Shown here one piece after another: positions 18,413-63,955 of a stretch of 64,000 bases of DNA. The stretch is from Escherichia coli (GTDB lineage Bacteria > Pseudomonadota > Gammaproteobacteria > Enterobacterales > Enterobacteriaceae). The notes under the pieces were generated by a model, which had not been told where the DNA came from, did no database searches, and saw only the letters and a program-made list of their open reading frames with translations. The stretch lies in assembly GCF_041886205.1 (NCBI RefSeq), contig NZ_CP169029.1; one strand, written 5' to 3'. The position numbers and the translations under genes were made by a program. Each line of letters starts with the position of its first letter. Position 1 is the stretch's first letter.

Positions 18413-18428
18413 TATCATTCGAATGTAT

Positions 18429-20796: not shown

Positions 20797-20850
20797 GATT
20801 GGCGTAAGGCCAGTCGGCCAGTCGCTGAAGATTCATTAAGGAGAGACTCA

Positions 20851-21828
20851 ATGAAGCAGGACAAAAGACGCGGTCTGACCCGGATCGCATTGGCGCTGGC
20901 ACTGGCGGGTTACTGCGTGACGCCCCTTGCGCTGGCGGAAGACAGCGCGTGGATCGAGAGCGGCGAGACCAATATTTTCCAGGGGACTATTCCGTGGCTC
21001 TATTCGGAAGGAGGAAATGCTACGACAGATGCCGACCATGTAACGTTGACTTCTGATCTAAAAGGCGCTCGCCCGCAAGGCAGTGAAACGGACAAGCGTC
21101 TTTACTCGGGTGATAAACTAACCGTAAGCTGGGAGATTGGCGATACTGAAGGCGACGTCGATCTTGGTACGGCGGGTAAAGATGCAAAAACCATCGATAC
21201 CATCCGCTGGATGAGCTACAAGGACGCCCAGGGGGGCGATCCAAAAGAGCTGGCAACGAAGGTGACCACTTACACCCTTACCGATGCCGACCGTGGACGC
21301 TATATCGGTATTGAAATTACCCCAACCACCCAGACGGGTACGCCATACGTTGGGACTGCGCTGCATCTTTATGATGTTTCAAATGCTAACGGCGGGGGAA
21401 GCGATGAAGATAACGTTGATCCAGGACCGGTAGTTAACCAGAACCTGAAAGTCGCCATCTTTGTTAAAGACACTACGACCAACCTTATTAACGGCAATAC
21501 GCCAATCCAGTTGGGCAAAACGTACGTCGCCAAACTGTACTCGGATGAGAACAAAAACGGTCGGTATGACGCGGGTACTGACGTTGATGTTACCACCAAT
21601 TATGACTACCGTTGGGTACTCTCTGGCAGCAGCCAACAGCTCAGCACCTCGGGTGGTATCGTTAACTCAAGCTTCGATAATCAAAACCTGGTCATCCCTG
21701 CGACCAACGACGAAGCCAGAACCAACCTTAACGGCCCTGCTCGTGATGGCAAAGAGGCTCTTGCGATCCCGACCAACGGCGATGGGGTTCAGGGTTACAA
21801 ACTGCAAATTATCTACAAACACAAATAA
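20851..21828 (+). CDS. sinI: secreted protein sharing a C-terminal module with the SinH-like passenger (SinI-like)
   Basis: 325 aa; signal peptide with AEDSAW cleavage region; C-terminal ~110 aa align to the SinH-like C-terminus (VIPATN-EA, DG-QGY-L-Y-K, YDY-W--G-S). Confidence 0.65.
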   Translation: MKQDKRRGLTRIALALALAGYCVTPLALAEDSAWIESGETNIFQGTIPWLYSEGGNATTDADHVTLTSDLKGARPQGSETDKRLYSGDKLTVSWEIGDTEGDVDLGTAGKDAKTIDTIRWMSYKDAQGGDPKELATKVTTYTLTDADRGRYIGIEITPTTQTGTPYVGTALHLYDVSNANGGGSDEDNVDPGPVVNQNLKVAIFVKDTTTNLINGNTPIQLGKTYVAKLYSDENKNGRYDAGTDVDVTTNYDYRWVLSGSSQQLSTSGGIVNSSFDNQNLVIPATNDEARTNLNGPARDGKEALAIPTNGDGVQGYKLQIIYKHK

Positions 21829-21839
21829 CACTTGCTCAA

Positions 21840-21870
21840 CAGCATTCCCGCGTGGGAATGCTGTTTCCGC
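21840..21870 (+). terminator. possible rho-independent terminator after the SinI-like gene
   Basis: Hairpin cagcattccc gcgt gggaatgctg followed by TTTCCGCATATTTT. Confidence 0.5.
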
Positions 21871-21903
21871 ATATTTTGCTTAATTCAGGATTAAGCAAAA
21901 TAT
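21871..21903. promoter_or_regulatory. perfect 14-bp-arm palindrome (atattttgcttaat-tcagg-attaagcaaaatat) 45 bp upstream of the giant ORF; candidate operator
   Basis: Read directly in sequence; function unknown. Confidence 0.35.
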
Positions 21904-21948
21904 GTTGATGCGGTAACCGTTCGTTAAATAACTGGTGGAGTTCTTTTC

Positions 21949-24900
21949 ATGTCCCAGCCCCTGAAACCCGGCACTTTTTATGTTCTGCTTGTATTGCTGC
22001 TAACCGCAATGCTGCCGGGATGGTCATGGGCGGGCTCGTCATGGCAAGACTCATCCGATACGGCGGGAGAATTTAACGGTACCGTCCCCAATGCCGACAG
22101 CGCCAGTATGCCGGTTTATCAGGGCAGTATTTGGCTTGATCCTGCAAAGACCCATGATGTTTCGTTTTCCGCTAAACCCAATGAATTTAGCGTTAATCTG
22201 GATGTGTCGAAGCTGATTGTGACGAACCCGCAGGACCTGGAAGGGGATGTGTTTACCAACCCCCGTTGGGAAAACCAAACGCCGCCAGCGGTCTCTTTAG
22301 TCTGGGCGGATGCGGCGACACCGGAAACCCCACTTAATCCTCAGCCAGTGGCTGGGCGTTCCTTTTGTGCGCAAGGGCTTGCTGGGCGTTCGCTGGTTGT
22401 CTGGCCGCAGCCAGACCCACAGCAGACCATGCCGCAACTTTATCTACGCACCTCGACAGGTTATCCCTATGAAAGTCTTCTGACGCTTGTCGATAAAAAA
22501 GTGACGTTAAATATTGCACCGGCCCAGGGCGACTTAATTTCTGTCAGTGCGGCCGGTTATGACGATACCGTGGGCGGGGCGAAAACTACCGTTGGCGGCA
22601 ATATCACGTTGACCGTTACCACCAAAGACTGCAGCGGCAACGTTGCAGGAAATATTCCTTTTATTATCAAACGCAAAGATGCTGAAAACCGACAGGGTGA
22701 GGTCAACAATGCTTCGCCGGTTGTTCTGGACAAAACTGAACTGACCACTATCGCGACCGAATATCACGGCACCACGGATGCGAACGGCGTTGCGACGATC
22801 ACGGTCACGCAACCCAACGGCCCTGGTGTAAAAACGCCGCTGGTAGCCAGTCTTTCAGGTATTGGTCAAACCAGTGAAACGGCAGTGATCTTTACCGTCC
22901 TTACCAGCCCGGATGTCCCTCAGGCCACGATGTGGGGCCATATGCCCGATACGCTAAAGGCCCATGATTATACGTTCAGTCGGCCAAAATTGGCGGCAGA
23001 AGTCGATAACGAAAATGGTACCGTTAACGATCACAATGAAACCTGGTCTACCTTCACCTGGAGCGGGGCGGATAAACATTGCGACATTTTGCCCGGTATG
23101 CGCCAGTTTGGCGCGTTGGCAACGGTGGTGCCCACGACAGTTCAGGATCTCGTTGGTTGGCCGATACAGGGTAACTACTACTGGTCATCACTGGCGGGGA
23201 TGACCGGACAGCACCATGCGGCGGATGTTTCCAACCGTAGCGAAGCGCAAAAACCGGACGATACGACGTTTATTGTCAGTTGTGTCGATAAAGAAGCTCC
23301 TGACGTTGAACCGAAACTGGTGCTAACACCGGGAAGCTATGATTCGACGTTAAAGGCGATGAAAGTAAAGGTGGGGGAAGAAGCGTCTCTGCGTGTAACC
23401 ATCACCGATAATAAAAACAATAATCAACCGCTGGCGTATTACTACTTTTCGTTACATCTGGATGACGGCATCAACCGTAAAAATCCATCGGATGCGGCAT
23501 GGGAAGCGCATCCGGTGCAGATAGCGGGTGGCAGCAATGTCCATCAGGTTGACGCGCATACCTATGAAGGCATTACGGATGTAAATGGTCAGGCATCACT
23601 GACGCTAACGCAACCGGGCGGCGCGGGCGTGAAAACACACATTACTGCGAAAATGCGCAGCGACTTCACCACGTCGGATGAGAAAGACGTGATTTTTACA
23701 GTCATTACCAGCCCCGATACTGACAAAGCCCGGATGTGGGGGCATATGCAGGGTATTATTGATTCTAATAATATCTTTAAACGTCCACGGCTGGCAGATG
23801 AAACCGACCATGAACTCGGTTCAGTGCGGGAGAACAACGAAGACTGGGCGCTGTTCGACCAAAATAGCAGCATGCAGGCTGAATGCGGTGTAGGTCATAT
23901 TCCGAGCCAGAATCAATTACAGGGTCTGTTCACGGCGCATCCTGGCAATGCGATTGGCACCGAATATGGCTGGCCGACGGCGCAAAAAGATTACCTTAGT
24001 GCGGTACAACAAGAGCCACACTCCTCCGTGAACCTGGGCACAGGTAACATCGACACCTATTCAGGCTTTAAGCAGAACTATCTCTCCTGTTCCGGTAATG
24101 AGATGGTTGCTCAGATTACCGCAACGACCGATCATGACGTTTCCGTGGGCAGCAGGGCGCAGGCTAAAGTTGGAGAAACCGTCACCATGACGGTGCATAC
24201 CTTCAATGCACTGAATAATGCGCCCGTGCCGTTTACCGCCTTCAGCATCACAAAGGAGATGGGTAAAAACCGTCAGGGGCAGACTACCGGATATACCGAT
24301 CCGACGAGTGGCGCAATTGAGATGAATGGCACGCTCTACGGAACATCCCAGGCCTCGGTGGTTTATTCCGGGACTACGGATGCACAGGGCTACGCAACGG
24401 TGGAGATTGAACAACCCCAGGGCGTGGGCTTAATTACGCCGCTAAATATTGCGCCTGTGAACTCCTATATTCCCAATACAGTAAATTACAACGTGATTTT
24501 CACCACGCCTACCAGCCCGGATGTGGTGGCGGCGCAGATGTGGGGGCATATGGATGAGACTATTACAGTCGATTCTTTAACCTTCACCCGGCCTAAACTG
24601 GCAGCGGAAGTTTCCAGCCCGGATGCGACATTGACAGAAAATAATGAAGTCTGGGCACGTGTGAGTCAGGCGAATACGTCCAGTATAAGTAAAGGTGGCT
24701 GTGGAGCGAATATGCTGCCGCGTCGATCCCAGCTTAGCGCGCTCTATGAGGCTAATAACGGTAATGCTGTACAAACAGTACACGGCTGGCCAACCCTGCG
24801 TGAGCCGTACTGGAGTAGTTCCCCAGCGGATAAAGTTCCTCATTTTTACACCATTGCACTCAATGATGGCGCACAGGCTATTGGCGGTAGCAACGCGGTT

Positions 24901-27900
24901 TATGTCAGCTGCCTGACGACGGCAAATAGTCCTGCTAACGCTATTACCTTAGAGGTGGTGGATCAGGCGCAATGGAACGCGACGGCGAAAGCGGCGAAGC
25001 TGAAAAAAGGCGAAACACTCCAGGTTAAGGTAACGGTGAAGGATGCTCAGGGCAATGCACTGTCGGATATGCCATTCACCCTGAAACGTGGCGATGGTTA
25101 TACCCGCTCAAATGAAAAACATATTGCTGGCAGCGGGGATGCGCTGGTTGCGCCAGTCATCGTCAACGGAGGCCTGGCGGATGAAACTTCACTGAATGAT
25201 ACCGCGACAGCATACGTTGCCATGACCGGCAGCGACGGCACTAAAATACTTACCATAACCCGCCCGGAGACGCATGGCACCAAAACGGCGCTGATCGCTG
25301 CGCTGTATTCTGATGCAACGAAAAACGCCAGCCTCGACACCATTTTTACCGTTGCGACCAGCCCGGACAGCGATAAGGCGAAAATGTGGGGGCACATGGC
25401 GGAAACGGTGACGGCTACTGACGGCACGGTATTTAAACGCCCGCGCTTACTGAAAGAGTGGTCAACTCAGTCCTCTCTTACTGAAGATAATGAGGTCTGG
25501 GGGTTGTATAACATCAGCGATGCAAAATCTACCAGCGATGGCTGTGGCGCTAATTATGTTCCTGCGCAGGTTGGGCTGGAGTCATTGTTTGACAATAACC
25601 GCAGCAACGCGATGAAAACCGTACAAGGTTGGCCGGTAAATACTCATTATCTTTCAAGCACCTCGAGTACGGACAGTTTATCGCAGCATAATTATAAAGC
25701 CGTCGATCTGGGCAATGGAACCAGTACCTCAATATCCGCTTCCGAGAGGAAGTTGTTAACCTGCCAGACGACCGAGGTGTTACAGGCAAGCCAGATTCTG
25801 CTGGACGCAGCGGATCCAACCACCTTCGACAGCACAAATAATGTTGTCAAAGTTAAAAAAGGCGAAGCGGCAGTGGTGCGTGTAACCACGAAGGATTCGC
25901 AGGGGAATCCTGTAGGAAATACCGCATTTACCCTCAAACGAAACTACAGCGTGAACAGGGCTAATGCGTCGAATACCACGTCGATTGCTTCATTGGTGGT
26001 AACGGATGCATGGGGAAATACTCAGGACAGTTTTCTTTCCACGTCCCTGGTCATTTATGGCGTAACGGGGGCCGATGGCACCACCACCTTTACACTGAAA
26101 CAAGACCAGTCTACCGGCTTAAAAACGGAACTCACGGCAGCGCTGGACTCCTCCAGCAGCATTACATCGTCGCTTCCCGTCGTCTTTACGGTGCTTACCA
26201 GCCCGGATTCGCCAAAAGCCAAATTCTGGGGGCATATGGCTGAAACGGCGACAGGCGATGACGGTCTCATTTATAAAAGGCCATTGCTGAGAGACGAGAT
26301 TAGCGCCTCTAGCGGTATCAGCACCCTGACAGAAGAGGGGGAAAGCTGGTCTATGTTCCGGGCGGACAATGCTAATGATACTTCGATAAGTGGTTGTGGC
26401 GCGGAGTATGTTCCAACTGACAGTGAACTTAAGGCCATTTATGCGCACCAGGGGGGGAGCGCATTGCATGGTGCTATCGGCTGGCCCGTTTCGAAGCCCT
26501 ATATCTCGAATACCGTCGCAGATGCATTCACTCAACTCTTTAAGTTTGATGTCGTTTCGTTGAACACGGGAGATGAAACACAGATTTCATCAACTAGTGT
26601 AGGGCCTCTTAGCTGCCGTACCACGCCTGTCGCCGTTGCCAGTCAGATTATTGTTGAGGCGAACGATGCGGCGCAATTTGTCAAAGTTGACGATACCTTG
26701 AGTGCGCTGAAAGTGAAAAAAGGTGAAGACGCGGTGATTCGCGTGGTGACCAAAGATGCGCAGGGGAATACCGTGCCCAATGTTCCCTTTATTCTCAAGC
26801 GAGAGGGTTCAACGAATCGTCAAAATGTCACGATGATAAATAAGTCGATTACGGTGATTAACGCGGCAGGGACTTCTACGAATGTGCTTAGTTCGTCAAC
26901 ACTGCTTTATGGGGTAACGGGCGCGGACGGGACTACCACGTTTACGGTAAAACAAGATGATTCTATGGGTCTGATGACCAATATGTACGCTCAGTTGTAT
27001 CAGTCGACGATAGAATCCAACAAATTACCGGTGATGTTTACCGTTATAACCAGCCCGGATACGCCTCTGGCAAACTACTGGGGGCATATGTCTGAAACCT
27101 TCACGACAAGGTCGGGGGTTGTCTTCAAGCGGCCAATGCTTAGTGCCGAGCATCCAGCGGGGCAGTCAACCGTGGATAATAATGAATCCTGGCTTTCCTT
27201 AAATACAGCAGCAAAAAATGATGTCAGCAAATCAGGCTGTGACGAACCTTATCAACCGTTATTAAGCGAACTTCAGGATTTGTACAGTGAACATCCTAAT
27301 GGTGCGATAGGAACCGATTTAGGCCTTCCGTTGACGAAAACCTGGTGGGCTTACGATAAAGTGGCCTATGCGAACGCCTGGTACGATCAGTCTGTTAATT
27401 TGTCGAATGGGTCAAGCGCCAGGGCGTCGTCAACCACCGTTGCGTTTGTGCCCTGTCTGGTAAACCCTCATGCAGTGGCTGCTTCTATTGAGATAACCTC
27501 CACGGCACTGGATGCGGAGAAAACGGCCAGTAACGATGGTCGCCCCAGCGCAACCGCACCGAAAGGTACGGCGATCCGGATGACGGTGATTGTGCGGGAT
27601 AGCGCAGGAAATCCATTGCCCGGCGCCAACTTTAACCTCGTACGCGGGACGGCATTGGATCGTGCAAAATACAGTGTCGATAGTTCGGCTGATGATCTGA
27701 CCCTCGTGCCTGTCACACCTGCTGGCGTAAATATGACTCTCACGAGTAATACATCAAAAGCACTGTTGACGACAGGCAGTGATGGTAAAGTGACCTTTGA
27801 TGTGACGCAAAACGGGACTTATGGGCTCGCAACCCCGCTCACTGCAACATTGCTACGCGACACTTCAATAAGCGCCACGATGGATGTCATTTTCACGGTG

Positions 27901-30000
27901 ATAACCAGTCCCGACTCACCGAAAGCAAAATACTGGGGTCATATGGCCGACACGTTTACCAGCAGTGCGGGGGTGACCTTTAAACGACCACTACTGGCAG
28001 CGGAAGCGACCTCCGGGTCCTCGGTTGGCAGTAATAATGAGTCGTGGTCATACCTTAATGTTAACGACAGAGCTACGTCGGATTGCTCACTGGAGTATCA
28101 GCCGCGTCTCAATGAGTTACAGGGGTTATATAACGATCATCCTGGCGGGGCCATACAGACGGATCTGGGGTTACCTGTAGCTGCCGGAAGTGGAAACTGG
28201 TGGGCTTATGAAATGAGTATACCTAACCCCAGCGGGTCGGTGTGGTTTTACGGCATCATTAATTTGAAAACGGGACAATCGTCGACCACGTCGAGTGGAT
28301 TCGCTTTAATGCTCTGCCTGACGCAGCCGCATACGGTACCGGCAAGCCTTACACTGTCATCAACCGCCTACGATGAAGGCAGAACCGCCAGCAATGGTGG
28401 CACACCTACGTCATCTGTGAAAAAAGGTGAGACGCTTCCCTTAGTGGTGACGATCAAAGATGCCAATGGTAACCCCGTTGGCGGCGAAGGCGTTACGCTC
28501 AAGCGCGCGCAGGCGAAAAGCCGTTCAGGTATCTCTGTCTCCTCCACTACCGTTGATGATCTTATTTTAAATGAAGTCACACCGGAATCAGCCAGCTTTT
28601 CCTTCGCCGCGGATTTGGCATCATGGAGCGGCATCACCGGCAGTGACGGCACTGTAACGTTCAATATTACACAAAAAAATACCATCGGCCTGGTAACGCC
28701 GTTTACAGCCTCATTGGGGCGAAATCCGCAGGTCACCGCCAACCAGGACCTGATGTTCACGGTGGTAACCAGCCCGGATTCGCCGAAGGCAAACTACTGG
28801 GGGCATATGCCAGCAACCTTGACGGCAGTGAATGGTGCGGTATTTGAACGCCCGAAATTGTGGAGTGAACTGCCATCGACCTCCGGCGTCGGCAAGATCA
28901 ATAACAATAATGAGGACTGGCCGTACTATTCACCGACAAAAAAATCTGATGAGAGTGTGACCCCTTGCGAAGTGGCAAGACAGCCTCTGCTTAGTGATTT
29001 AAATTCGCTGTCTGCGCGTTATCCGGATAACACCTTCGCCGCTGAAACGGGCTGGTCTGTGTATTACACCTGGTGGGCAGAGGATAAATCCGCCGCGGGT
29101 AAAGATCAGTCGGTGGATTTGAGGAATGGCACGCTGTATACGAATGCAACAGGAGCATTTCTGCCATGCCTGGTTAATGCGCGTTCAACCGTTTCCAGCG
29201 TCACGCTCACCTCAACGGCGTTTGACGCTACCACTCAGGCGGCGAAAGTGAAAAAAGGCGAAGCCATGCCCGTTACCGTAACGGTGAAAGACAGCGCCGG
29301 GAAAACGGTGGCGAATGTGGCTTTTACCCTGAAACGCGGTGATGCTGCGCCAAGAAACCCAGGTATGGCCTTGTACGGCGATGTGGATGCGATGGATGAC
29401 ATGACCGTTCAGCCGACATCGGGAGCGGCGGTGACGTGGCCTGACAGTGGCAATGCTTTGCAGGGAACCACCGGTTCTGACGGTACGGCGACGTTTATGG
29501 TTAAACAGAATAATACGCCGGGTTATAAAACGCCGTTGACGGTCACGTTGGACAATAACACCAGCATCACTGCGACAATGGACGCTATTTTCACCGTAGT
29601 GACCAGCCCGAATGTCTCAAGCGCCTATTACTGGGGGCACATGGCAGATACGACCACGGTGAATGGTAAAACATTGCATCGCCCGTTGTTGGCATCGGAG
29701 CTACCTGCGAATGCTTCTTCCCCAGCCACGCCTGACGTAAACAATGAAGCCTGGGCTATGGGGCATATGGTGGATTCAAGGAATTGGGATATCGAGGCGC
29801 AGTGTGGCAGCTTGACCAACGCGCCAAACGATGACGACTTAATGGGTCTGTATACTAACTTTAGTTCGCTGGGTTGGCCTGCATCCCCGAGTTTTCCTTA
29901 CTTATCTTCTCAGAGATGCGGCGTGTTTGAAAACAGTGGACAACAGGACTGCGCTATTGCGCCAGGCAGCACAAAAGGTTTTGTGACTTGTACCCAATAA
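21949..30000 (+). CDS. giant secreted repetitive protein (2683 aa) with about 9 tandem ~280-aa modules containing Ig-like (BIG-type) segments; RatA/RatB/ShdA-family-like
   Basis: Signal peptide at the N-terminus; motif FTV-TSPD...WGHM recurs 9 times with 800-866-bp period (DNA positions about 22895, 23698, 24500, 25341, 26181, 27031, 27888, 28754, 29590); each module also has VKKGE...V.VTVKDA.GN...FTLKR and C(G)..Y.P...L..LY motifs. Confidence 0.8.
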
Positions 30001-30045
30001 GATCAATGTGGGGGGCCGCCTACGGCGGCCATACACAATGGACTT

Positions 30046-31526
<1,481 letters not shown>

Positions 31527-50910: not shown

Positions 50911-50946
50911 TTCAGCCCGACGAACTGTTTCGCCGGGCTGATTTTT
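50911..50946 (+). terminator. rho-independent terminator after perM (overlaps focB 3' end)
   Basis: tcagcccg...cgggctga then TTTTTT. Confidence 0.6.
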
Positions 50947-51794
50947 TAGGGTTCCTGACGTAAATAAATAGCCCGATAACAAATACTCACCAGCACTGCA
51001 CCGCCGATAATATTACCCAGCATCACCGGGAGCAGATTGGCGGTAATAAAATGGCTGACCGTCAGTGCCGGAAAATTGTCTGCGCTACTGTGCGCCAGTT
51101 GCCAGAAGGGGGTTGGGGCAAAATGGCGAATGGCAATGGCGAACGGAATCACAAACAAATTGGCGATACAGTGCTCAAAGCCACTGGCGACAAACAGGGT
51201 GATGGGCAAAATCATGGCGACGATTTTGTCGCATAATGAACGCCCGCAATAACTCATCCACAGCGCCAGGCAAACCATCAGATTGCACATAATGCCGAGG
51301 CTGACAGATTCAGTAAATGTATGATGCATTTTGCCCTCGGCGCAGTGTAAAACCGCGACTCCCCACATCGCGTTTTCACTCATCACCAGCCCGGAAAACC
51401 AGATTAACAAACTGAAACAGGCAATACCTGCCAGATTACCGCAGGCCACCAGAAGTGCGTTAATCAGCCATGTTCGCCAACTAATAACGCCCCGACTTTT
51501 TGCCATCACCGTCATTACCGACGAGGTGAACAGGCTGGTGCCGCAAACCGCCAGCAAAATAAAGCCGAGTGTAAAGCAAAGGCCGCCCACCAGATGGGTT
51601 AATGCTTGTGAAGACGGGGCATCGGCGATAACGGAAAGGTAAAAAGTAAATCCGATCGCCATAAACACGCCAGCGGACATCGCCATTAAAAAGACCGACA
51701 CTTTACTGCGGGCAATTTTATGGGCGGCAATCCGTTCAGCGATTGCCGCTTTTCTGGCGCTCAACTGCAAGTCGAAAGAGAGTTTGTTTCTCAT
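50946..51794 (-). CDS. focB: formate channel FocB (FNT family)
   Basis: 282 aa polytopic membrane protein immediately downstream of hyfR. Confidence 0.85.
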   Translation of the reverse strand: MRNKLSFDLQLSARKAAIAERIAAHKIARSKVSVFLMAMSAGVFMAIGFTFYLSVIADAPSSQALTHLVGGLCFTLGFILLAVCGTSLFTSSVMTVMAKSRGVISWRTWLINALLVACGNLAGIACFSLLIWFSGLVMSENAMWGVAVLHCAEGKMHHTFTESVSLGIMCNLMVCLALWMSYCGRSLCDKIVAMILPITLFVASGFEHCIANLFVIPFAIAIRHFAPTPFWQLAHSSADNFPALTVSHFITANLLPVMLGNIIGGAVLVSICYRAIYLRQEP

Positions 51795-51815: not shown

Positions 51816-53831
51816 TTACAACACCTCGCGAACCGAGATCCCCAGACGCTGCATTCGTGACAGCAGCGTGGTGCGCTTCATCCCTAATCGTGTCGCCGCG
51901 CCACGGGGCCCGGCAACAATGCCATTGGTTTCTCGCAATACCTGAACAATGCGCTGACGTTCTTCTTCGTCATTCTCTGGCGTCGTCGGGTGCAGCAACT
52001 GCGCCATTGAACTGCGAAGCGCTGAATCTTCATTTAGCGTCGGCAGTAAACGGCTTTGTCGGACATTTAGATGTAAATTCAGACTGTTACCACGAGTCAA
52101 CAGTACCGCCCGCTCAATCACGTTTTCCAGCTCGCGCACGTTGCCCGGCCAATCCCACGACATCAACTGGCGTAGTGCCTCGGTCGGGATGGCGTCAATT
52201 GCGCGATTCATATGGCGCGCCATTTTTTGCGTGAAATGCTTTGCTAAAAGAGGGATATCTTCCGGACGGTCGCGTAGCGGCGGCAATTCCAGTGGGAAGA
52301 CATTCAGGCGATAAAAGAGATCGCTGCGAAACTGGCGATCTTCAACCATTTGCCACAAATCACGGTTGGTGGCGGCAATGACTCTGACATTCACCGGGAT
52401 CGTTCTACTCCCGCCGAGACGCTCAATCTCCCGTTCCTGCAATACGCGCAGCAGTTCAGGCTGAAGTTCTAACGGCAGATCGCCAATTTCATCGAGAAAC
52501 AACGTGCCGCCATCGGCAATTTCAAAACGACCACGATGGGTATTAATCGCACCAGTAAACGCCCCTTTGTCATGACCGAATAACTCACTTTCCAGAAGAC
52601 TGGCGGGGATGGCAGCGCAGTTGATTTTGACCAGCGGCTTGTCGTGTCGCGGGCTAAGTTGATGGATCGCTCTGGCGATCACCTCTTTGCCGGTTCCGGT
52701 TTCACCACAAATCAACACTGTACTGTCGCTCTTCGCCACAATATCTACCTGCTGGAGCAGGTCTTCCATTGCCTGGCTTTGATAGATAATGTCACCGACG
52801 CCCAGATTCGAAAGGAGCTGCTCGCTAAGCTGGTGGTTTTCTTGCTGCAAACTTTCCTGCAAATCGGTCATGCTACGCCAGGCATCGGCATTGCCAACGG
52901 CAATAGCGATGCGATCGGCTATGTGTTGTAGTAGCTGGCAGTTTTCCTCACTAAAGAGAGTGGAAGAGGTATGCGCCAGCAACAATGCACCCGGTGTATG
53001 GTTGCCAAAGGTAAGCGGTATCAGGAGCGCAGATTCGCAGCCGTTAGATGCAAGTAAGTGTAATAACGGGTCGCGTTGCCAGAGAAACAGATCGTCTGCA
53101 CGGTGCGTCAAGGTCGGTTGTCGGGTTTGTAGCGTTTGTGTCAGCAATACACTTTCGCCAGGCATACAGCGTGGCAGACACGCACAATGTGAGGCAGAAA
53201 GATCGCTGCACCACAGGCTGAACTTATCGTTCTTTCGATGATCTCCCAGTACCATACTGACTGAAGCCAGACCGAAAAAATGATGGATCTCACGGGCGAC
53301 GTCAGCGATCAGATCGTCGAGATCAAGATGTGACAGCACTGCATTAGTAATATCAACCAGTACCCGATGATGATCGCGATCTTTCTCCAGCAAACGCAGC
53401 GCCACCTGCTGTTCTTCATCATTGAGCCATGATTGCAGAACCGGGGTGATTATCCGCGCCAGCCAGTTAAACAGTGTGCAATCTTGGGGAGTAAAACGGC
53501 TGCCGTGGGTACGAATAAAGCGTAGCTCCGCCATTCCACTACTGCCGAGAAGGACGGCGTGACGCGAATAATCGACCATCTCGCCCTGATACTCTGTTGT
53601 TGCCGTCACATCGCTGCCATCATCATGGTAGCGGTAATAGAAGTTGCTTTTGAGAACATGCAGTTCAATAAGTTGTACCGGGCTGAACGGCGGCGGCAGC
53701 GGGATGAAGGCGCGTAATAAAGACGCCTTACTGTGTTTCTGCGCTAACCGCTCCGCGAGCATTCCGTTTACCGCTTCAATTGTTATTCCTTGCGGCGGGG
53801 CAAACATCGCCTCGTCTGACATAGCCATCAA
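51816..53831 (-). CDS. hyfR: sigma-54-dependent transcriptional activator of the hyf operon
   Basis: 671 aa (670 if the second Met is used); GAF-like N-domain, AAA+ sigma-54 interaction domain ([14 protein letters not shown]), C-terminal HTH. Confidence 0.9.
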
Positions 53832-53857: not shown

Positions 53858-54271
53858 TCACGTAATTTTTCTGGCCATCAGATAGATGGCCGGTTCCTGC
53901 ACAATTTCATCCAACAGATGAATGAATTGAATGCTACGCGCCTGCCACACAGACGTCGCGTCATCCGCCAGTGGCGCGAATGCCCGGGTCAACAGGGCGG
54001 TGTGGCTGGCGTCAATAACAATCTCACCAAAAGTCATCACCCCCAGCATCTTACGTCGGGCTTGCTCCTCTTCGACCAGTGCAAGCCAATCTTCGTATTC
54101 CGTCAGTGGGCAGGGGAAGGCGACATTCAGACAATCAATCACGCCAACGTGATGACCGATAGCCAGCGAGTAATACATTACCTGAGAGCTGTGTTCCGGC
54201 ATCTCGTCGCTACTGGCGACAAACTTTTTTCGCAGCGTCCAGAAAACAATTTCCCCGCACTCTTCAGTCAT
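53858..54271 (-). CDS. hyfJ: hydrogenase-4 maturation/assembly protein (HycH-like)
   Basis: 137 aa from [17 protein letters not shown]; the ORF track extends 21 codons upstream. Confidence 0.8.
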
Positions 54272-55021
54272 GTAACCCCCGGAGTACGCGAAAGAGTTGC
54301 TGAACGATACTATTGAGACGTGGATCGTCGGCATCGCGCAACCAGGTGTTAACCCGATTTCCTGTAGGATCGTCGCTTAAATGGCGCAGGAGCCGATCGC
54401 AAATTTCTCGCCCCTGACGATAGCCCGCCAGCCGCCGCGCTTCTCGCTCAATGGCGATACGCTGTGATGGCGGGATCTGCGGCCACAACGGTTGCATAGT
54501 CACCCCGGTGGGATCGCGATAATCCACCGCGTGAATCTTCTGTTGCAGCAAACCGAGCGCCACGGCGAAACCGTGAATGGTGGCGGCCGGTGTTGGCGGG
54601 CAGCCGGGGATCCAAACATCAATGGGGACAATGGTGTCGCTGCCGCCCCAGACGCTGTAGAGATCGTGGAAAATCCGCCGCCGGCACCGCACGCGCCGTA
54701 GGAAACACAGATTTTATGATCGGGGGCAGACTCATACGCCCGAAGTGCAGGCATACGCATCGCCCGGGTGAGTGCGCCAGTAAATAACAAAATATCGGCG
54801 TGACGCGGTGATGAAACAACCTTAATGCCAAAACGTTCTGCGTCGAATACTGGTGTAATGGCGGCAAAAATTTCGATTTCACAGGCGTTGCAGCCACCGC
54901 AATCGACGCGATAAACGTAGGCTGAGCGACGGATATCCTGTAGCAAATGCCGCTTCATCTTTTGCGTTTGCTCGTCCAGCGTGATGGGCTGGCTGACATA
55001 TTGCGTAAGCACTGGACTCAT
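54264..55021 (-). pseudogene. hyfI: hydrogenase-4 small subunit (NuoB-like), disrupted by a -1 frameshift near 54675
   Basis: Two ORFs (54500..55021 and 54264..54692) in different frames. The first reads intact through ...[14 protein letters not shown] and the second resumes at [27 protein letters not shown]; 116 + 136 = 252 aa, matching the NuoB motif spacing (CANGGG-YYHY-SYSVV); locus length 758 bp instead of 759. Confidence 0.75.
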
Positions 55022-55563
55022 AGCTGCTCCTTAGCCACCAGCGGTACATCTGTATCGTCGTTGAGCAGCGTCGCGCGTTGTTTGCACTCCGGGCAGACGC
55101 TCGCTTGCGCCCATAACATTTCGCGGTTTTGTGGCGCATTTTGTTGCTGTGCCAACAATTCAGCAGCCAGTGCGACGGTTTTTTGCGGGGCAAACGGGCG
55201 TTCGCAACGGCTGCAACGTTGTAGATGGAACGTCGCGCGGGTATAGAGATCGGCTTTATTGGTGACGGTCAGTTCAAAGTTATTGGTAAGCTGGATGGCT
55301 CTGGTCGGGCACACTTCTTCACAACGTCCGCAGTAAATACAACGCCCCAGATAGAGCTGCCAGGTGCGCGAATTTTGCTGGTCGTCGGTCTGGATAGTCA
55401 GCGCATTTGCCGGACAAGCACAGGCGCAGGCACCGCAGGCAATACATTGGCTGGGCATCAGGTCCGGTTTCCCGCGAAAGCCTGGGCTGACCTCCAGTGG
55501 CGCGAAGGGATATTTCACCGTCGCGGTTCCGGCGCGCATAATAGTTTTCAGTAACTTCAGCAT
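55018..55563 (-). CDS. hyfH: hydrogenase-4 ferredoxin-like subunit (2x 4Fe-4S)
   Basis: 181 aa; [12 protein letters not shown] and [12 protein letters not shown] motifs. Confidence 0.9.
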
Positions 55564-55572: not shown

Positions 55573-57288
55573 TTACTTCAGCGGCGAACGGTTACGATCA
55601 ATGCCGTAGCGTTCGATCTCTTTATACGGCACGGTTTTTGACTGGCGCTTGCGCACATCTACCAGCGTCACACGGTCGGTACAGGAGTAGCAGGGATCAA
55701 GGCTACCGATAATCAGCGGTGCGTCAGAAACGGTATTGCCGCGCAGCATGTAACGCAACACCGGCCAGTTGGCGTAGGTGGCGGCACGACAGCGCCAGCG
55801 GAACAATTTTTGGTTATCACCGAGCATGCTCCAGTGCACGTCTTCGCCGCGTGGCGCTTCAACAAAGCCCAGCGCGAATGCGTGAGGTTTATAGCTAAAG
55901 CCTTCGGTCAGCAGTGGGGTATCCGGCATGTTGTCGAGGGCAAATTCCAGCATTGCCAGCGAATCAAACGTCTCTTTGACACGGACCATCATGCGGGAGA
56001 AGACATCGCCGCCGGTAAAGGTAAACAGTGTTTTTGGAATATTGCCGTAGTCGGCGTAGGGGTGATCAAAGCGCAAATCACGGGCAAAACCACTGCCGCG
56101 GATCAGCGGCCCTACAGGGCTATAATCACGGGCGATTTGTCGGTCGAGAATGCCAATGCCCTGAGTGCGTTGTTCCATATTCGGCGTAGCAAGCAGCATC
56201 TCTACCAGCTCCGACACGTCGGCGCGCATCTCGCGCACCAGTTTCAGCGTTTGCAGACGTTGCTCTTTGAGAATATCGCGGCGAACACCACCAATCAGAT
56301 TCAGACCGTAGGTTTTACGCGACCCGATCAGCAATTCCGCCATCGTCATCGACTTTTCCCGCACGCGGAAAAATTGCATAAAGCCGGTATCAAAACCAAC
56401 GAAATGGCAGGAGAGGCCAAGGTTAAGCAAATGACTGTGTAGCCGTTCGACTTCCAGCAGAATCGAGCGAATAGTATGTGCTCGTTGCGGCACCTCAATC
56501 CCCAGTGCATTTTCAACCGAGTTGGTATAGGCCACACTGTGGGCAAAACCGCAAATCCCACACACGCGGTCCGATAAGAAGGTCACTTCGTTGTAGCCCA
56601 TCCGCGTTTCTGCCAGTTTCTCCATGCCGCGATGGACATAAAACAGGCGGTAATCAGCATCGACAATTTGCTCGCCATTCACAAACAAGCGGAAGTGACC
56701 CGGTTCATCGGAGGTGATATGCAGCGGGCCGACAGGGATCACCCGCGCATCGCTGTTGCCCTCATTGATAAACGCATACGTTTCGGAATCTGTCGTCGGT
56801 TCAGGGCGCAGTCGATAATCCATCGCATCTTTGCGCAGCGGATGCATATCTTCCGGCCAGTCATCGGGCAACACCAGGCGACGCTGATCCGGCAGGCCAA
56901 CCGGAATCAGCCCGTACATATCGCGAATTTCTCGCTCGCCCCAGACCGCGGCAGGGACGCGCAGTGTGACTGACGGAAACTCCCGACTGTCGGCATCGAC
57001 CAGTGCCTTAACCACGATCCAGCATTTTTCGGCCCCTTCCATAGAAAGGGCATAATAAACGGCGTAATGACCGTTAAGTGTCCGCTCGTCGTTGCCAAAC
57101 AGGACCGGAAGCCAGCCATCATGTTGATAATAAAGATAATGTACAACGTCAGGCAGCAGATTGATTTTCACCGTAATGGTGACCTGTTCAGGCGTTTGTC
57201 GCTCTTCATCCAGCACCGCGCCGGGGAACTGCGTTTTCAGGGCGGCGAGAATCGCTTCGCCACGATTTGACGATGAATTAACGTTCAC
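55573..57288 (-). CDS. hyfG: hydrogenase-4 large (NiFe) subunit
   Basis: About 571 aa from the GTG at 57288 (RBS GAGAAA); NiFe-hydrogenase large-subunit motifs ([12 protein letters not shown]-terminal, [10 protein letters not shown]-terminal); exact start uncertain. Confidence 0.85.
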
Positions 57289-58858
57289 TGTGTTTCTCCG
57301 AAACAGATGCGGTGCCTGAAGGCAAAAAATCATGCCAGGTGCTACGTTGTGCAGGCAGGTCGTGCGTCCCTGAGAGGACTATAGTGGAAGCGCCCGCCAG
57401 GATCCTGATGACAGGTTGTGGAATATGCGTTCCCATCGCCAGCATCATGACCAGCAGAATCACCATTGGCGAGGTGGTCAACCAGCCGAGATCACCCCGG
57501 TTAACGGCCTGCGGCGGTTTCGCCATTAACACCCGCGCAGCCATCCGTACCAGGCCCGCCAGCACCAGCGTTAACAGCAATAACAGCATGACGATAATCA
57601 GCAGGTGATTACGTGCCAGTCCGGCGGTAACGGTCATAAATTCGCTAAGAAAAATGTTGAAGGGCGGCATCCCGGCCAGCGCCAGCGCACCGCCGCCAAA
57701 CAGCACGGCGGTAAATGGCATGATTTTGAGCATCCCGCAGACGACGTTGAGATCGCGCGTGCCGTACTTGAGCAGTACATTGCCGGAACCGCAGAACAGC
57801 AGCGTTTTTGCCAGACTGTGGTTTAAGGTGTGCAGCAGCGCGGCAAAAATTCCCAGCGGCCCGCCAATGCCTAGCGCCACCGCGACCAGTCCCATGTTCT
57901 CCACGCTGGAGTACGCCAGCAGACGCTTAATGTCCCGCTGTACCAGAATGAAAAATGCCGCCACGGCAACCGACAACATGCCGAAGATGAGCAACAACCG
58001 GTTGGGGAAATCGCTGCCGATGGCCTGGCAGATAATGATGTAATAGCGAATCATCACCAACAGCGCGCAGTTCAGCAATACGGCGGAGAGCAGGGCGCTG
58101 ACCGGACTCGGCGCTTCACTGTGAGCATCCGGCAGCCAGGCGTGCATAGGAAATAGCCCGGTTTTGGTACCAAAGCCAATTAGCACAAACACAAAGGCCA
58201 ATAGCATTAATGTTGGGTCAAGCAAGGACTATTGCTTAAGAACCTCGCTCCAGAATATCGCCATTTCTGCCTGCGGCATAACGCTGGCGGCGTTGGCGTA
58301 TACCAGCACGGTACCGAACAGACCAAAAGCGACGCCAACAGTACAAATAATGATGTACTTCCATGCAGCTTCCAGCGATGAACGCTGACCGTAAATGCCT
58401 ACCAGAAACGCCGAGCTTAAGGTGGTGGCTTCGATCGCCGCCCACATCACAATCAGGTTATTGCTGGTAACAACCAGCAGCATGGTGAACAAAAACAGAT
58501 GGAAGAAACCGTAGTAATCGCACAGCGTAACGGGTGAAAGCTCGCCGTGTGCCACTTCATGACGCATGTAGCCAATCGAGTAAACACCGGTGAGAAAGCC
58601 AATCACACCAAGAATGGCGAGGAACAAACCGCCCAGACCATCAATATGAAGCCACAGTCCCGCAGCGAATATTTCTCCCGCACCAGCGGCAGTTTGAACC
58701 AACCAGAGTGCCAGAATCAGCAGCAGTGTGATCCCTAAGCTATGTAATACTGTCACCGCGCGAGTCGCAGAGTGCCCCCGTTTCCGGCAGGCAAAACAGA
58801 GCAGCGAAAAAAGCAGCGGCGTGAGCAGGAGTAAAGCGAACATCACAGAATAACTCAT
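57278..58858 (-). pseudogene. hyfF: hydrogenase-4 membrane subunit (NuoL/M/N-like), interrupted by an in-frame amber codon (TAG at 58229-58231)
   Basis: ORFs 58229..58858 (209 aa) and 57278..58225 (315 aa) are in the same frame, separated by TAG plus one codon; 209 + 1 + 1 + 315 = 526 codons, i.e. one gene with a nonsense mutation. Confidence 0.75.
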
Positions 58859-58862: not shown

Positions 58863-59513
58863 TTATCCCTTCAGCGCGGTCAAGTTGTTCACGTCCAGCG
58901 TGCCGTGGGTACGCCATATTTTTCTTGCCAGTAACACCATCACAATGACGGCGAAGATGGCGTCGGTAGCGATACCTATTTCCACCAGTTCCGGTGCTCG
59001 CCAGGCAAGAAGCGCCAGCACCAGATGGGAGCCGTTTTCCATCAGGCAGTAACCAAAAATTTGCCGCAGGATATTGCGCTGGCTGACAATGCACAGCAGG
59101 CCAAGCAGAAAATGACCTAACGCTACCGCCAGCGCCGGTTTCAGCCCGGTAGCCATCGGTAGCTTCATGGGCTGAACGACAAATGCGCAAAGCAGGACAA
59201 TTAACGCCGCGAGCAGTGCCATCATTGCCGGACCGAATAACGCTTTTTCCGGGATGTTCTGGGGAATATTTCGTGCAGCGTAAGTCATGATTAACGGTAC
59301 CAGCAGCACTTTGGTGATAAAGGCGCTGGCGGACCAGATCAGCAGTTGCTCTGCGGCGAACAGGCACGAGAGAGTGGCGAAAATAGACACCAGCACCAGC
59401 GACTGGCAGGCGTAAAATCCGCATGACAGGCGATAGCTTTTGACGCTAATCACAAACAGCGATGTCAGCATCATCAGTCCCGCCAGATTATTTACGATCA
59501 TAGAACCGGTCAT
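58863..59513 (-). CDS. hyfE: hydrogenase-4 membrane subunit
   Basis: 216-aa hydrophobic protein in the conserved position. Confidence 0.9.
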
Positions 59514-59524: not shown

Positions 59525-60963
59525 TTACTGCAACCAGGTCGCGGCGATTACGCTGGAAATCAGCGACATCACAATCAGTACAATCAACACCAGGCGCATT
59601 GACCCTGGCAGCGGTGCGGCATCGGCGACGGCCTCGCTCGGTTTGCCAGGCACAACGCGACCAAACCAGCGAATAAACCAGGCGAAACTGGCGACCGATT
59701 CAATCATCAGCAGAATCATGGCGGGCAGCAGGATCCAGTACTCCACTGACAACGCAAAACCGGCAGCAAACAGCGGGAATTTACTGAAGAAGCCGTTGAA
59801 CGGCGGCACACCGGTAATCGCCAGCGCTGCCACGCAGAAACCCACGCCTGGCAACGGCAGGGTGTGCAATACGCCACGCAGACGCGGCAACAAGCGCGTG
59901 CCGCAGCTGTAACTCAGCGCACCTGCTACAAGGAAAAACAGGCTTTTAGCGAACGCGTGGTTGACGATGTAGGCGATGCTACCCTCCAGCGCCAGCCGCG
60001 AGCCGAAGATGGAGAGCGACAAACCGAAGAACATCCAGCCAAGTTGAGTGATGGTCGACCAGGCCAGCAACCGCTTCATATCCTGCTGTGGCAAATACAT
60101 CAGAAAGCCATAAAGAATGGTGACCAGGGCCATGACCATGCCAACGCCGCCAATCACATGCGGGATATTGCCACCGTCGATAATGGCGCGGGCAAAAATG
60201 TAAACGCCCACTTTCACCATCGATGCGGCGTGGAGATAGGCGCTGATCGGTGTTGGCGCTTCCATTGCATCCGGTAGCCACGCTTGCATCGGTAGCTGGG
60301 CCGATTTCCCCCACGCGGCAAACAGGATGCCGCCATAAACCAGATAACGTGCGTCGCCGTGTAACTCGCTCATCGCGCTAAGCGCAAACGTTCCGGTCTG
60401 CAAAAACAGCGTGGCGGCGGCAAGATACAACCCCAACGAGCCGATATGAGTGATAAGTAACGCTTTTAGTGCTGAACGCTGTGCTTTATCGCTCTGGTAA
60501 TAACTGATCAACGCCCAGGAGCAGCCGCCCGTAATTTCAAAAAACAACAACTGACCGAGCAGCGTCGAGGAGAGTACCAGTCCCGCCATCGCGCCGATAA
60601 ACAACAGCAAAAATGCGTAATAACGATTCGTGCCGTTATGCGGGTGTTCGCGATTTTTATCCGTCAGATAACCCGTGGAGTAGATCGTGACCAGCAAACC
60701 GAGAAACACCACCACAAACAGAATCAGCGTACTCACGCGATCAATGAGCAGGCCAAACAACGCCACATCCCCCACGTTGACCAACGTCAACGTGACGGCA
60801 ACTTTATCGGCCTGATAAAACGCGGAGATCAGCGACAACATGCACAGCGTGGTCAGTGCGGCGAACAAAACCCCCATTCGGCGGCCCGACGTTGTGGCGA
60901 AAACGAAACGACCAGTGCGCCGATAAAAGGCAGCATTAACGTCGTCAGAGCAAGATTTTCCAT
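59525..60963 (-). pseudogene. hyfD: hydrogenase-4 membrane subunit (NuoL/M-like), -1 frameshift in a C5 run (plus strand 60871-60875)
   Basis: True start ATG at 60963 with RBS TAAGGAG reads MENLALTTLMLPFIGALVVSFSPQRRAAEWG and then hits TGA. The 450-aa ORF continues in the -1 frame from VLFAALTT; 31 + 448 = 479 aa; locus length 1439 bp is not a multiple of 3. Confidence 0.75.
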
Positions 60964-60979: not shown

Positions 60980-61927
60980 TTACAGACCGGTTAACCAGAA
61001 GACCCATGCAAGCGCAGCAAGGCTGAAGCCAAGCCAGGTCACATGGTGAATGAGTAAAAAACGCCCGCGTGCCAGCGTGTTTTCTGCGATTGAGGCCAGT
61101 ACAAAAATCAGCAAAACCTTGAGCAGCGTAACGACAAGTGAAGTCAGCAGGCAGGCGAGAGAAAGTTCTTGCGCGCGCCCAAAGGGCAGAAACAGGGCCA
61201 CAAACAGTGCTGCCATCACGACCTGTTTCAGCCCCAGCCCCCATTTCGCTAGCGCCAGCCCGGCACCGGAATATTCGGTCAGCGGGCCTTCCTGTAATTC
61301 CTGTTCTGCTTCAGCAACATCAAAGGGAATTTTTCCCATCTCAATGAAGCAGGCAAAACCACAGGCCAGTAACGCCAGTACGGTGGTTAGCGGCGAGTTC
61401 CAGCCCGTTGCCAGCGTATTGCTGATCATCTCGATATGCGTGGAACCTGCTATCAGCGCCAATACCAGCAGTGAGAGAATGAGCATGGGTTCGACCAGAA
61501 TGCCGAGCGTCAACTCGCGACTGGCACCGACTCCCGCAAACGGGCTTCCGGTATCCAGCCCGGAAAGAGCAAAGAAAAAACGAAACAGGGCAAGAAGATA
61601 GATAAGGGTGATCAGATCGCCGCCGCCCGCAAAAGGGGAAACGGTAATAAAAAGTGGTAGGGCCATCGCCAGCACCAGCATGCTGCTGATTAATACCCAC
61701 GGCATCAGGCGGAACATCAGACCTGAAGATATAGGCGCAACTTCCTGGCGTTTAAACAGTTTGTGGATATCGCGATAATCCTGCCAGATCCCCGGCCCGC
61801 GGCGGGAGTGCATACGCGCGCGTATCTGCCGGGAAATACCCGTAAAAAGCGGGGTTAGCAGCAGCAGAATCACGGCCTGTGCTAACGCAAAAATGACCAG
61901 ATATCCGTCGCAAAGAGTTTGTCTCAT
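60980..61927 (-). CDS. hyfC: hydrogenase-4 membrane subunit (NuoH-like)
   Basis: 315 aa from MRQTLCDGYLVIFALAQAV; the ORF-track start is 7 codons upstream. Confidence 0.9.
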   Translation of the reverse strand: MRQTLCDGYLVIFALAQAVILLLLTPLFTGISRQIRARMHSRRGPGIWQDYRDIHKLFKRQEVAPISSGLMFRLMPWVLISSMLVLAMALPLFITVSPFAGGGDLITLIYLLALFRFFFALSGLDTGSPFAGVGASRELTLGILVEPMLILSLLVLALIAGSTHIEMISNTLATGWNSPLTTVLALLACGFACFIEMGKIPFDVAEAEQELQEGPLTEYSGAGLALAKWGLGLKQVVMAALFVALFLPFGRAQELSLACLLTSLVVTLLKVLLIFVLASIAENTLARGRFLLIHHVTWLGFSLAALAWVFWLTGL

Positions 61928-61937: not shown

Positions 61938-63955
61938 TTAGACGGCAATAGCGATTAGCAGCACAACCAGTGCGGCGACCACATACAGGCAATAGAGACG
62001 AAAGTCGCCGCTTTGCAGATGCTGTATTTCTTTGGCCAGCCGTTGGGTGGCGCTCACGATGGGGCGGATCACCCGCTCATCCCAGAAGGGTTCTGTGCTC
62101 TGAGCCCTGGCGGTGACGTGCGCAAGACCTTTATTTAGCCTCAGCGTAGGGTCGAGCTGTTGTCGTAGACGAAATAGCGCAGAAAAGACCACACGCAGCG
62201 GCTGCATCACGCCATTGCCTGACGGGGCCATCGCATTTTCCCAGCCGTAGCCGCATGCCCAGGCATCTCCTGTGCGACGAAACGCTGCGCGGCGCGAACG
62301 ACACCACAGCCAGTAAAGGCCAGGCAGCAAAGGCATCGCCAGTAGTAACAGCAACAGTAATGAGGGTGTGACCCGTGTATGAAACGTGCCGGGTACAAGT
62401 GCTATTCCGCTGGCGACAGTGACGGGAGGGGTATTGGTAAACGCATGGGCAATGTGCATTATCTTCGGTGCCAGCCAACTGGCACTGAGCGCAATTAATA
62501 CGCAGAGTGCCGCGAGCAGTAGCATGGCGACGATCATTGTATTTGGCACTTCCTGTGCCTCTTCAGCGTGTGTGCTGCGCGGCGCACCACAGAAAGTAAT
62601 ACCGTAGATTTTGACGAAGCACATTACTGCCAGCCCACCAGTGACTGCCAGCATTACCATAGCAATAGGACCCGCAAGTTGTAGCGCTACGGCTTCCACA
62701 CGACTTAGTGAGAACAGCAACTGCCAGGTGTACCATTCGCTGATAAAACCATTCAGCGGAGGAATGGCTGATATCGCGAGGCAACCAATCAGGCATGCTG
62801 CGGCTGTCCACGGCATCCGTTTCGCCAGTGCCCCCATTTTTTCCATGTCGTGGGTATGCAAACGCGAAATAATCGCACCCGCGCCGAGAAATAGCAGCCC
62901 TTTGAACAGCGCATGGTTGAGCAGATGAAACAGTGCGCCGAGCAGTCCAACCACGGTGAGCAGCGGGTCGTGCAGTGACAGACCGTCCATCGCCACACCG
63001 ACCGCCAGCAAAATAATGCCGACGTTTTCGACGGTACTCCAGGCCAGCAGCCGTTTGATATCCTGTTCCGCCAGTGCATACAGCACGCCCAGGAGCGCGG
63101 AGATTGCGCCGATCGCCATCACCAGAGTGCCCCACCACAGAGGCAAACCCGTTTGCGCCAGCAGATCCATCGCTACTTTCAGGATGCCGAAAATACCGAT
63201 TTTGACCATTACGCCAGACATCAACGCCGAAGCGTGCGATGGTGCGGCAGGGTGAGCGCGCGGCAACCAGCTGTGCAACGGCATCATCCCGGCTTTCGCG
63301 CCAAAACCGAAAAAGGCCAGCAGAAACACCGCCGACGCCAGCCCCGGAGAAAGTGAAAGCGTGCGAAACTGGCAAAATCGAGGCTGCCGCTTTCGCGCCC
63401 CATCAGCAAGAAGGCGATCATAATCAGCACCGATCCGGCGTGGGCGATAAAAAAGTAGAGCATGCCAGCGTTGATCGACGTTTTATCCTGCCTGGCAATG
63501 ACCAGAAACCAGGAAGACAGCGACATCATTTCAAACAGCACGATGAACCAAAAAGCGTTGTCCATCACCAGCAGGGCAACCATCGATGCGATGAAAAGAT
63601 TCATAAAGAAGCCCATCGCCGCCGCGCCTTTGCCCTCGTATTCGCGCATATAAGTCAATGAATAGAGCGAACAAACCACCACCAGCAAGGAGATAACCAG
63701 CACCATAAATGCCGAGAGGCTATCCATTCGCAGGGTTAAATCGGCAAAGTCAAAAGGGGTGGCAAAATGGGCGACTAAAGTTACACCAGCATGTAATTGC
63801 GTAATTCCGCTGATGATGCCAATCACGCCGCCCACCAGCGATGTGATGCCGGAAAGCTTAATAGCCAGTCTGTCCAGACCGAGTAAAAACAGCGAAGCCA
63901 GACTGGCAAACAGATAGAGGATCAGCGACCAGGTTAATAATTGCAGGGCATCCAT
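61938..63955 (-). pseudogene. hyfB: hydrogenase-4 membrane subunit (NuoL-like), -1 frameshift around 63360-63370
   Basis: ORFs 63284..63955 (real through ...GSLDFASF) and 61938..63329 (resuming RTLSLSPGLAS-VFLLAFFGFGAKAGMMPLHSWLP) are in different frames; 197 + 475 = 672 codons with one shared nucleotide. Confidence 0.75.

Follow-up and report, generated by a model that had tools for sequence, protein, structure and literature searches.

The hyf operon (hyfABCDEFGHIJR-focB) occupies the last 14 kb of the window, the 64,000-nt stretch of Escherichia coli DNA (contig NZ_CP169029.1) analysed here. It lies on the minus strand, with hyfA running off the window end, and is 98.7% identical to the K-12 operon in alignment (Table 1). 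Its hyfD gene occupies the same locus as in K-12, with the same gene order and the same neighbours (bcp upstream, yfgO downstream). The gene specifies membrane subunit D of hydrogenase-4 (Hyd-4) / formate hydrogenlyase-2 (FHL-2), a NuoL/M/N-like protein. Naming of the gene as hyfD in an initial annotation, made from the window alone, agrees with the alignment with K-12 b2484: the gene sits between hyfC and hyfE, is near-identical to b2484 over its full length, and bears the name hyfD in RefSeq records of identical genomes.

Table 1. Features of the hyf operon in the window (positions in window coordinates; all features read on the minus strand).
Feature	Position (strand)	Observation	Comparison or basis
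hyfB pseudogene	61938..63955 (-)	-1 frameshift (TTTCCGC -> TTTCGC) at ~63365	TGA 63284-63286, codon 224 of 672
hyfC, intact frame	60980-61927 (-)	one terminal stop	K-12 length
hyfD pseudogene	59525..60963 (-)	1,439 nt, against 1,440 nt in K-12	alignment with K-12 b2484
G5 homopolymer in hyfD	60871..60875 (-)	site of the 1-nt deletion, codons 31/32; CCCCC on the plus strand	G6 in K-12
Residual 5' ORF of hyfD	60853..60963 (-)	36 aa (TM1 plus 5 out-of-frame residues)	ends at TGA 60855-60853
3' ORF of hyfD	59525..60877 (-)	450 aa, HyfD residues 30-479 (W30M)	start ATG 60877-60875, put in frame by the deletion
Linked SNP in hyfD	60857 (-)	A on the minus strand, 17 nt downstream of the run; marks the G5 haplotype	G in K-12
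hyfE, intact frame	58863-59513 (-)	one terminal stop	K-12 length
hyfF pseudogene	57278..58858 (-)	TCG -> TAG nonsense mutation	codon 210, 58229-58231
hyfG, intact, 571-aa form	55573..57288 (-)	has 48 nt (~56086-56133)	48 nt missing from K-12
hyfH, intact frame	55018-55563 (-)	one terminal stop	K-12 length
hyfI pseudogene (hydrogenase small subunit)	54264..55021 (-)	-1 frameshift (GGTATTTT -> GGATTTT) at ~54674	TGA 54500-54502, codon 174 of 252
hyfJ, intact frame	53858-54271 (-)	one terminal stop	K-12 length
hyfR, intact frame	51816-53828 (-)	one terminal stop	K-12 length
focB, intact frame	50946-51794 (-)	one terminal stop	K-12 length

Outside the operon, BLAST comparison with K-12 detected no other internal indels in the 32 kb that the two sequences share. 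Two larger insertions relative to K-12 are present elsewhere in the window. The first, of 12.1 kb (18138-30273), lies between xseA and der in place of the yfgJ region and codes for SinH (730 aa, an intimin-like inverse autotransporter), SinI (325 aa) and a RatA-like repeat adhesin of 2,683 aa, all three of which match NCBIfam models above the curated cut-off. The second, of 4.9 kb (4167-9021), lies between pbpC and ndk and codes for the A subunit (793 aa) and B subunit (209 aa) of a member of the DMSO/selenate-reductase family, a ferredoxin-like protein of 284 aa, and a 273-aa protein with no NCBIfam match.

Around the hyfD lesion the minus-strand sequence is GCCGCCGAATGGGGGTTTTGTTCGCC, in which positions 60875..60871 form the G run. 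When translated from the native ATG (60963), the gene yields MENLALTTLMLPFIGALVVSFSPQRRAAEWGFCSPH, and a stop codon follows; shifted back by one base, the frame encodes MGVLFAALTTLCMLSLISAF and continues for 450 codons without interruption. Base-level alignment with K-12 MG1655 locates a single G absent from the G6 run, K-12 having GAATGGGGGGTTTT and the window GAATGGGGGTTTT; over the whole gene, this 1-nt gap is accompanied by 18 substitutions, 15 of them synonymous. Codons W30 and G31 remain in frame, codon 32 onward is shifted, and the first premature stop falls at codon 37 of 479. The initial annotation had recognised the CCCCC run, the switch from AAEWG to VLFAALTT in the -1 frame and a shift point at about codon 31, and the sequence and its translations agree with it in every detail. 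Its reading that one base had been lost from a 6-nt homopolymer, and that a 6-nt run would restore a 479-aa protein, is borne out by K-12 hyfD, which carries G6, measures 1,440 nt and encodes 479 aa. The comparison with K-12 that it had proposed as a check gives exactly one G fewer in the window run.

The reading frame of hyfD is thus broken and closed by a premature stop, as in a pseudogene, and intact orthologues of 479 aa occur in K-12, O157:H7, O55:H7 and KOr019. According to hydropathy, HyfD residues ~4-22 form TM1, and the frameshift falls in a short loop with RR that connects TM1 to TM2. This loop is cytoplasmic. Given the position of the break, any restarted product would be devoid of TM1.

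The initial annotation had suspected that the shortened run might be a sequencing artefact. Homopolymers are an error hotspot on some sequencing platforms, and under this explanation the strain would truly carry G6 and an intact hyfD. The distribution of the allele does not support such a view. Searches with a 45-mer centred on the run, for which megablast seeds only when the run length matches, retrieved the G5 allele with its flanks from 1,102 of 5,426 complete E. coli genomes, originating from unrelated projects and hosts, and the G6 allele from 2,848. The region around the site is present in 4,292 of the 5,426 genomes and is absent altogether from about 1,130. At least 28 genomes, obtained from humans, cattle, pigs, pigeons, capybara and bear, match the window at 100% identity over the 501 nt surrounding the site. 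Among the carriers of G5 are E. coli HS (NC_009800) and H84, a laboratory stock of HS that was sequenced independently. Over 25 kb containing the hyf operon, the window is matched at ~100% identity by two other assemblies, wlxctx60 (bear) and 6EVA (human). An artefact would be private to one assembly or would track the sequencing platform, and here the allele is present in over 1,000 assemblies produced by many projects, and HS, sequenced twice, has it both times.

Haplotype structure points in the same direction. The A at 60857 was found in all 13 G5 genomes inspected, as well as in a derived G6T3 variant (RM10740), and, with its exact flank, in just 5 of the 2,848 G6 genomes. The window carries this A, which goes with G5 in ~1,100 genomes and with G6 in 5, together with the combination of hyfB, hyfF and hyfI lesions confirmed in strains G3/10, 08-00022 and JNEC-KY171. 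It is conceivable that the rare records of G4 (4 genomes) and of G6 on the A haplotype (5 genomes) are themselves errors; for the window, with two ~100% identical assemblies and with HS read as G5 twice, a homopolymer error hiding an intact gene is very improbable.

The frameshift is already known as a database fact, RefSeq having recorded the gene as a pseudogene. The label 'hyfD, frameshifted' is attached to the identical sequence in 08-00022 and G3/10, and HS, JNEC-KY171, wlxctx60 and 6EVA are likewise labelled; all six share the identical G5 allele and the linked SNP with the window. In the matching genomes, RefSeq also labels hyfB as 'frameshifted', hyfF as having an 'internal stop' and hyfI as 'frameshifted'. 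The lesion is inherited and recurs in independent genomes. In our assessment the hyfD frameshift is very probably a genuine, vertically inherited loss-of-function allele, one of four lesions in the operon, and not a read or assembly error. This assessment draws on direct observations, namely the sequence itself, the allele counts, the haplotype linkage and the co-occurring lesions.

The history of the G5 tract can be approached through comparison of operons. In addition to that of the window, 23 operons were catalogued: 9 were chosen on the basis of allele searches, and the other 14 were sampled at regular intervals along the ranked list of all 4,292 matches. The G5 genomes inspected have one SNP block in common, which extends from hyfC to the 5' part of hyfD, and 40-110 substitutions separate them in the rest of the operon. 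All four combinations of G5 or G6 with the hyfB -1 allele or its wild type are seen, on mosaic SNP patterns, and the same is true of the four combinations of G5 or G6 with a 208-nt deletion in hyfD (del208) or its wild type. It may be proposed from these patterns that the G6 tract lost one G, with replication slippage as the most likely mechanism, that the change from G6 to G5 probably had a single origin on the haplotype marked by the nearby SNP, and that G5 would then have moved onto other hyf backgrounds by homologous recombination.

The possibility that G5 arose again, independently, on a flank of the K-12 type was considered and rejected on a small sample: C5 and three further G5 genomes with one mismatch (4 inspected out of 107) all carry the TTTTATTC variant of the A haplotype. 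Run length follows the linked SNP almost perfectly across ~3,950 genomes. On the A haplotype, ~1,100 genomes have G5, 5 have G6 and 4 have G4, and no G7 was found on it among the complete E. coli genomes searched. The G6 genome of O178:H19 2012C-4431 and the G5 genome of 120899 are separated by a single substitution in 10 kb. This near-identical pair and the four G4 genomes show that the tract does, on rare occasions, change in length or become mis-called, and a strictly single event is probable rather than established. A separate change is seen in RM10740, with GGGGGGTTTATTC (G6T3) at the run in place of the GGGGGTTTTATTC (G5T4) of C5, a close relative; here a T-to-G substitution at the tract boundary has lengthened the G run, and the frame is still broken.

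Between K-12 and the window, dN/dS is 0.066 for hyfD and 0.17 operon-wide. The low value indicates that hyfD remained under constraint for the greater part of the period since the two haplotypes separated, and hence that its inactivation is comparatively recent.

Two mechanisms by which a frameshifted hyfD could retain a function deserve discussion. The first invokes either a -1 slippage of tRNA-Gly on G GGG G, which would yield the 479-aa protein, or phase switching between G5 and G6. A -1 slip in the P site on the G run would indeed restore the frame, and tract length has changed at least rarely. Programmed -1 frameshifting was nevertheless rejected, as neither a slippery heptamer nor a downstream structure is present. 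The sequence U GGG GGU UUU contains no X XXY YYZ heptamer in the required frame at the hyfD run, and the 89 nt downstream of it have an MFE of -17.1 kcal/mol against a shuffled mean of -24.2 kcal/mol (z = +2.3), that is, they are less structured than their shuffled counterparts. The combination that characterises a programmed site, a heptamer together with a stimulatory structure or an upstream Shine-Dalgarno-like stimulator, is thus not found at hyfD.

As for switching, a tract of 5-6 nt is short for phase variation. A phase-variable locus displays frequent and reversible length changes among close relatives; the single near-identical G5/G6 pair represents a rare change, and the tying of length to the linked SNP is the opposite of frequent switching. 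The absence of G7 and the finding of G4 in only four genomes also argue against phase variation or a hypermutable tract. A known parallel is offered by simple-sequence contingency loci, such as those of Neisseria and Haemophilus, in which a change in the length of an in-gene homopolymer likewise switches the frame. Unlike these loci, hyfD has a tract of 5-6 nt whose length is stably inherited with a SNP, and it accumulates secondary lesions; it behaves as a fixed pseudogene allele and not as a switch.

These secondary lesions are found in many other G5 genomes and comprise del208, a -1 deletion at position 5245 of the K-12 locus and, in HS, a 38-nt tandem duplication. They form the pattern that would be expected of a gene no longer under selection. 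In the window strain hyfB, hyfF and hyfI are broken as well, so a rescue of hyfD would gain nothing. Taken with the evidence above, slippage or switching appears extremely improbable, the least likely of the explanations examined.

The second mechanism is a split hyfD, in which a 36-aa TM1 peptide would be made alongside a 450-aa protein restarted at ATG 60877-60875. Its appeal lies in the geometry of the lesion: the deletion puts this ATG into the very frame of residues 31-479, the lesion interrupts a loop that joins two helices, and the upstream ORF stops 22 nt downstream of the ATG, such that some termination-reinitiation would be conceivable. Initiation signals tell another story. The anti-Shine-Dalgarno duplex of this ATG amounts to -2.5 kcal/mol, equal to the median over all 256 ATG triplets of the region; the 11 real hyf/focB starts (ATG; GTG for hyfG) reach -5.1 to -9.3 kcal/mol. 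By this measure of duplex energy there is no Shine-Dalgarno sequence ahead of the in-frame ATG, and efficient restart was rejected on this ground. Furthermore, the secondary lesions of other G5 genomes pile up in the 450-aa ORF, RefSeq calls hyfD a pseudogene, and three other genes of the operon are broken in this strain. A functional split gene is accordingly judged very unlikely, about as much so as a homopolymer error.

With hyfD regarded as a genuine loss-of-function allele, the state of the whole operon has to be considered. The initial annotation had treated the hyfD lesion as an isolated one; hyfB, hyfF and hyfI of the same operon turn out to be broken too. Each of these alleles is shared with other strains, the hyfB -1 allele being found in 1,264 complete genomes, the hyfF TAG210 allele in 293 and the hyfI -1 allele in 683. 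The window departs from K-12 in the G5 tract with its stop at codon 37, in the hyfB, hyfF and hyfI lesions, and in the extra 48 nt of hyfG. Among the G5 genomes, HS differs from the window in having neither the hyfF nor the hyfI lesion and in bearing the additional hyfD duplication, and 08-00022 differs in carrying an IS421 element at the hyfA-hyfB junction.

The functional weight of the individual lesions can be estimated from related enzymes. In Pectobacterium atrosepticum, a strain lacking hyfDEF still makes H2 and its production is not reduced (PMC7384014), which implies that a lesion in hyfD by itself does not necessarily eliminate activity. HycC is the counterpart of HyfB, and FHL-1 is inactive without HycC (PMC7384014). 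Because hyfB and hyfI are broken, the strain would be unable to assemble Hyd-4 whatever happens at hyfD. In the proposed sequence of events, the frame shift in the TM1-TM2 loop would end translation at codon 37, and the four lesions (hyfB -1, hyfD -1, hyfF TAG210 and hyfI -1) would together leave the cell with no hydrogenase-4 / formate hydrogenlyase-2. Loss of Hyd-4 / FHL-2 function in this strain is thus predicted from its genes. For metabolic models and annotation pipelines, this means that hyfB, hyfD, hyfF and hyfI are to be treated as pseudogenes and that the homopolymer is not to be 'corrected'.

The FHL-2 systems of P. atrosepticum and Trabulsiella guamensis have a homologous architecture, with a membrane arm formed by HyfB-F and a catalytic part comprising HyfG/I (PMC7384014; bioRxiv 10.1101/563510). 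Unlike the operon of the window with its four broken genes, theirs are intact, include the hyfK protease gene and make H2. The hyf operons of E. coli all lack hyfK (PMC7654741).

The hyf operon is decaying across E. coli through many independent lesions. Frequencies were derived from allele counts with 44-55-mers and from the evenly spaced sample of 14 genomes among the 4,292 that bear hyf. In this sample, 8 of 14 operons have at least one disabling (frameshift or nonsense) lesion, 3 are K-12-like, and 3 are fully intact with a 571-aa HyfG (O55:H7 CB9615, O157:H7 F7508 and KOr019). Across the 24 operons, 12 different alleles with a frameshift, a nonsense mutation or an out-of-frame indel were distinguished: 1 in hyfB, 4 in hyfD, 3 in hyfF (TAG123, TAA163 and TAG210), 1 in hyfH, 2 in hyfI and 1 in focB. 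The same set of operons also contains several in-frame indels and, at the hyfA/hyfB junction, insertions of IS421. The genes hyfABCDEFGHIJ have been listed among those differing in presence between E. coli groups (PMC2617782), a listing with which the ~1,130 genomes without the region are in keeping. No description of a species-wide pseudogenisation of hyf in E. coli was found in the full-text literature searched, subscription journals (e.g. Andrews et al. 1997, Sargent 2016) being outside its reach.

Several of these alleles have features of their own. The 208-nt out-of-frame deletion in hyfD (positions 5569-5776 of the K-12 locus; seven of the catalogued operons) is present in 860 complete genomes and occurs on both G5 and G6 backgrounds; the RefSeq name then becomes just 'hydrogenase 4 subunit D'. 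The duplication in HS is a perfect 38-nt tandem repeat (TGCTGCCGGTTTTGCGTTGTCAGTGGAGTACTGGATCC) at position 6008 of the K-12 locus, in addition to G5. IS421 (IS4-like) is inserted at the hyfA/hyfB junction in 08-00022 and in strain 167, on different haplotypes and in opposite orientations, and this junction may be an insertion hotspot. In focB, a -1 frameshift at position 14625 of the K-12 locus is common to 2011C-3911 and EC187792, whose hyfD lesions differ.

The lesions are unevenly distributed over the genes. Taken together, hyfD and hyfF account for 7 of the 12 lesion types overall (binomial p = 0.008), a result based on small numbers and on sampling that in part favoured hyfD alleles; among the evenly spaced genomes, an unbiased sample, their share is 5 of 8 (p = 0.017), again with small numbers. 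At least four independent hyfD-inactivating lesions (G5, -1 at 5245, del208 and the +38 duplication) and three hyfF nonsense alleles are segregating in E. coli, and in some lineages (120899 and O178 2012C-4431) hyfD is the sole broken structural gene. A wider reading, to which we give a small probability, is that the hyfD frameshift is one case in which FHL-2 lost its distal membrane arm (HyfD/HyfF), a loss that would have recurred in E. coli and may have been selected, and, relatedly, that the K-12 operon is itself defective through a 16-residue gap in HyfG. If this is true, FHL-2 would, with the distal arm lost, be reduced to a core resembling FHL-1, and such a core still works in the P. atrosepticum strain deleted for hyfDEF. 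As a matter of speculation by analogy with that strain, such a loss may be tolerated or even favoured.

In the case of K-12, the 48 nt missing from hyfG (position 9643 of the K-12 locus) are flanked by a 10-nt direct repeat, GCCCGTGATT. The K-12 protein has 555 aa, and HyfG has 571 aa in the window, in O157:H7, O55:H7, KOr019 and others. The 16 residues encoded by the 48 nt align without gaps to IARDFSNVGPMVRASGH of the solved HycE structure (7Z0S, 7Z0S_E). Their conservation in HycE argues that the 571-aa form is ancestral and that the catalytic subunit of Hyd-4 has undergone an in-frame deletion in K-12. The K-12-type hyfG junction is found in 2,113 of the 5,426 genomes.

Hyd-4 activity in E. 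coli has been called a 'long-standing mystery' (bioRxiv 10.1101/563510). Finney et al. (2020) obtained no Hyd-4 activity from K-12 despite the use of a T5 promoter, an extra protease or a swap of the HycE tail, and their report makes no mention of the hyfG deletion (PMC7654741). No description of the K-12 HyfG deletion was found in the full-text literature searched, with subscription journals outside reach. The deletion could help to explain why activity of the K-12 enzyme has not been demonstrated, and decades of attempts to detect Hyd-4 may have used a degenerate K-12 allele. K-12 serves as the reference for hyf, yet much of the species has a decayed operon. If the K-12 operon is defective, the long-sought active Hyd-4 of E. 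coli could be the product of intact operons, for example those in O157:H7 and O55:H7, and strains with a fully intact operon (O157:H7, O55:H7 and KOr019) are the obvious ones in which to look for its activity.
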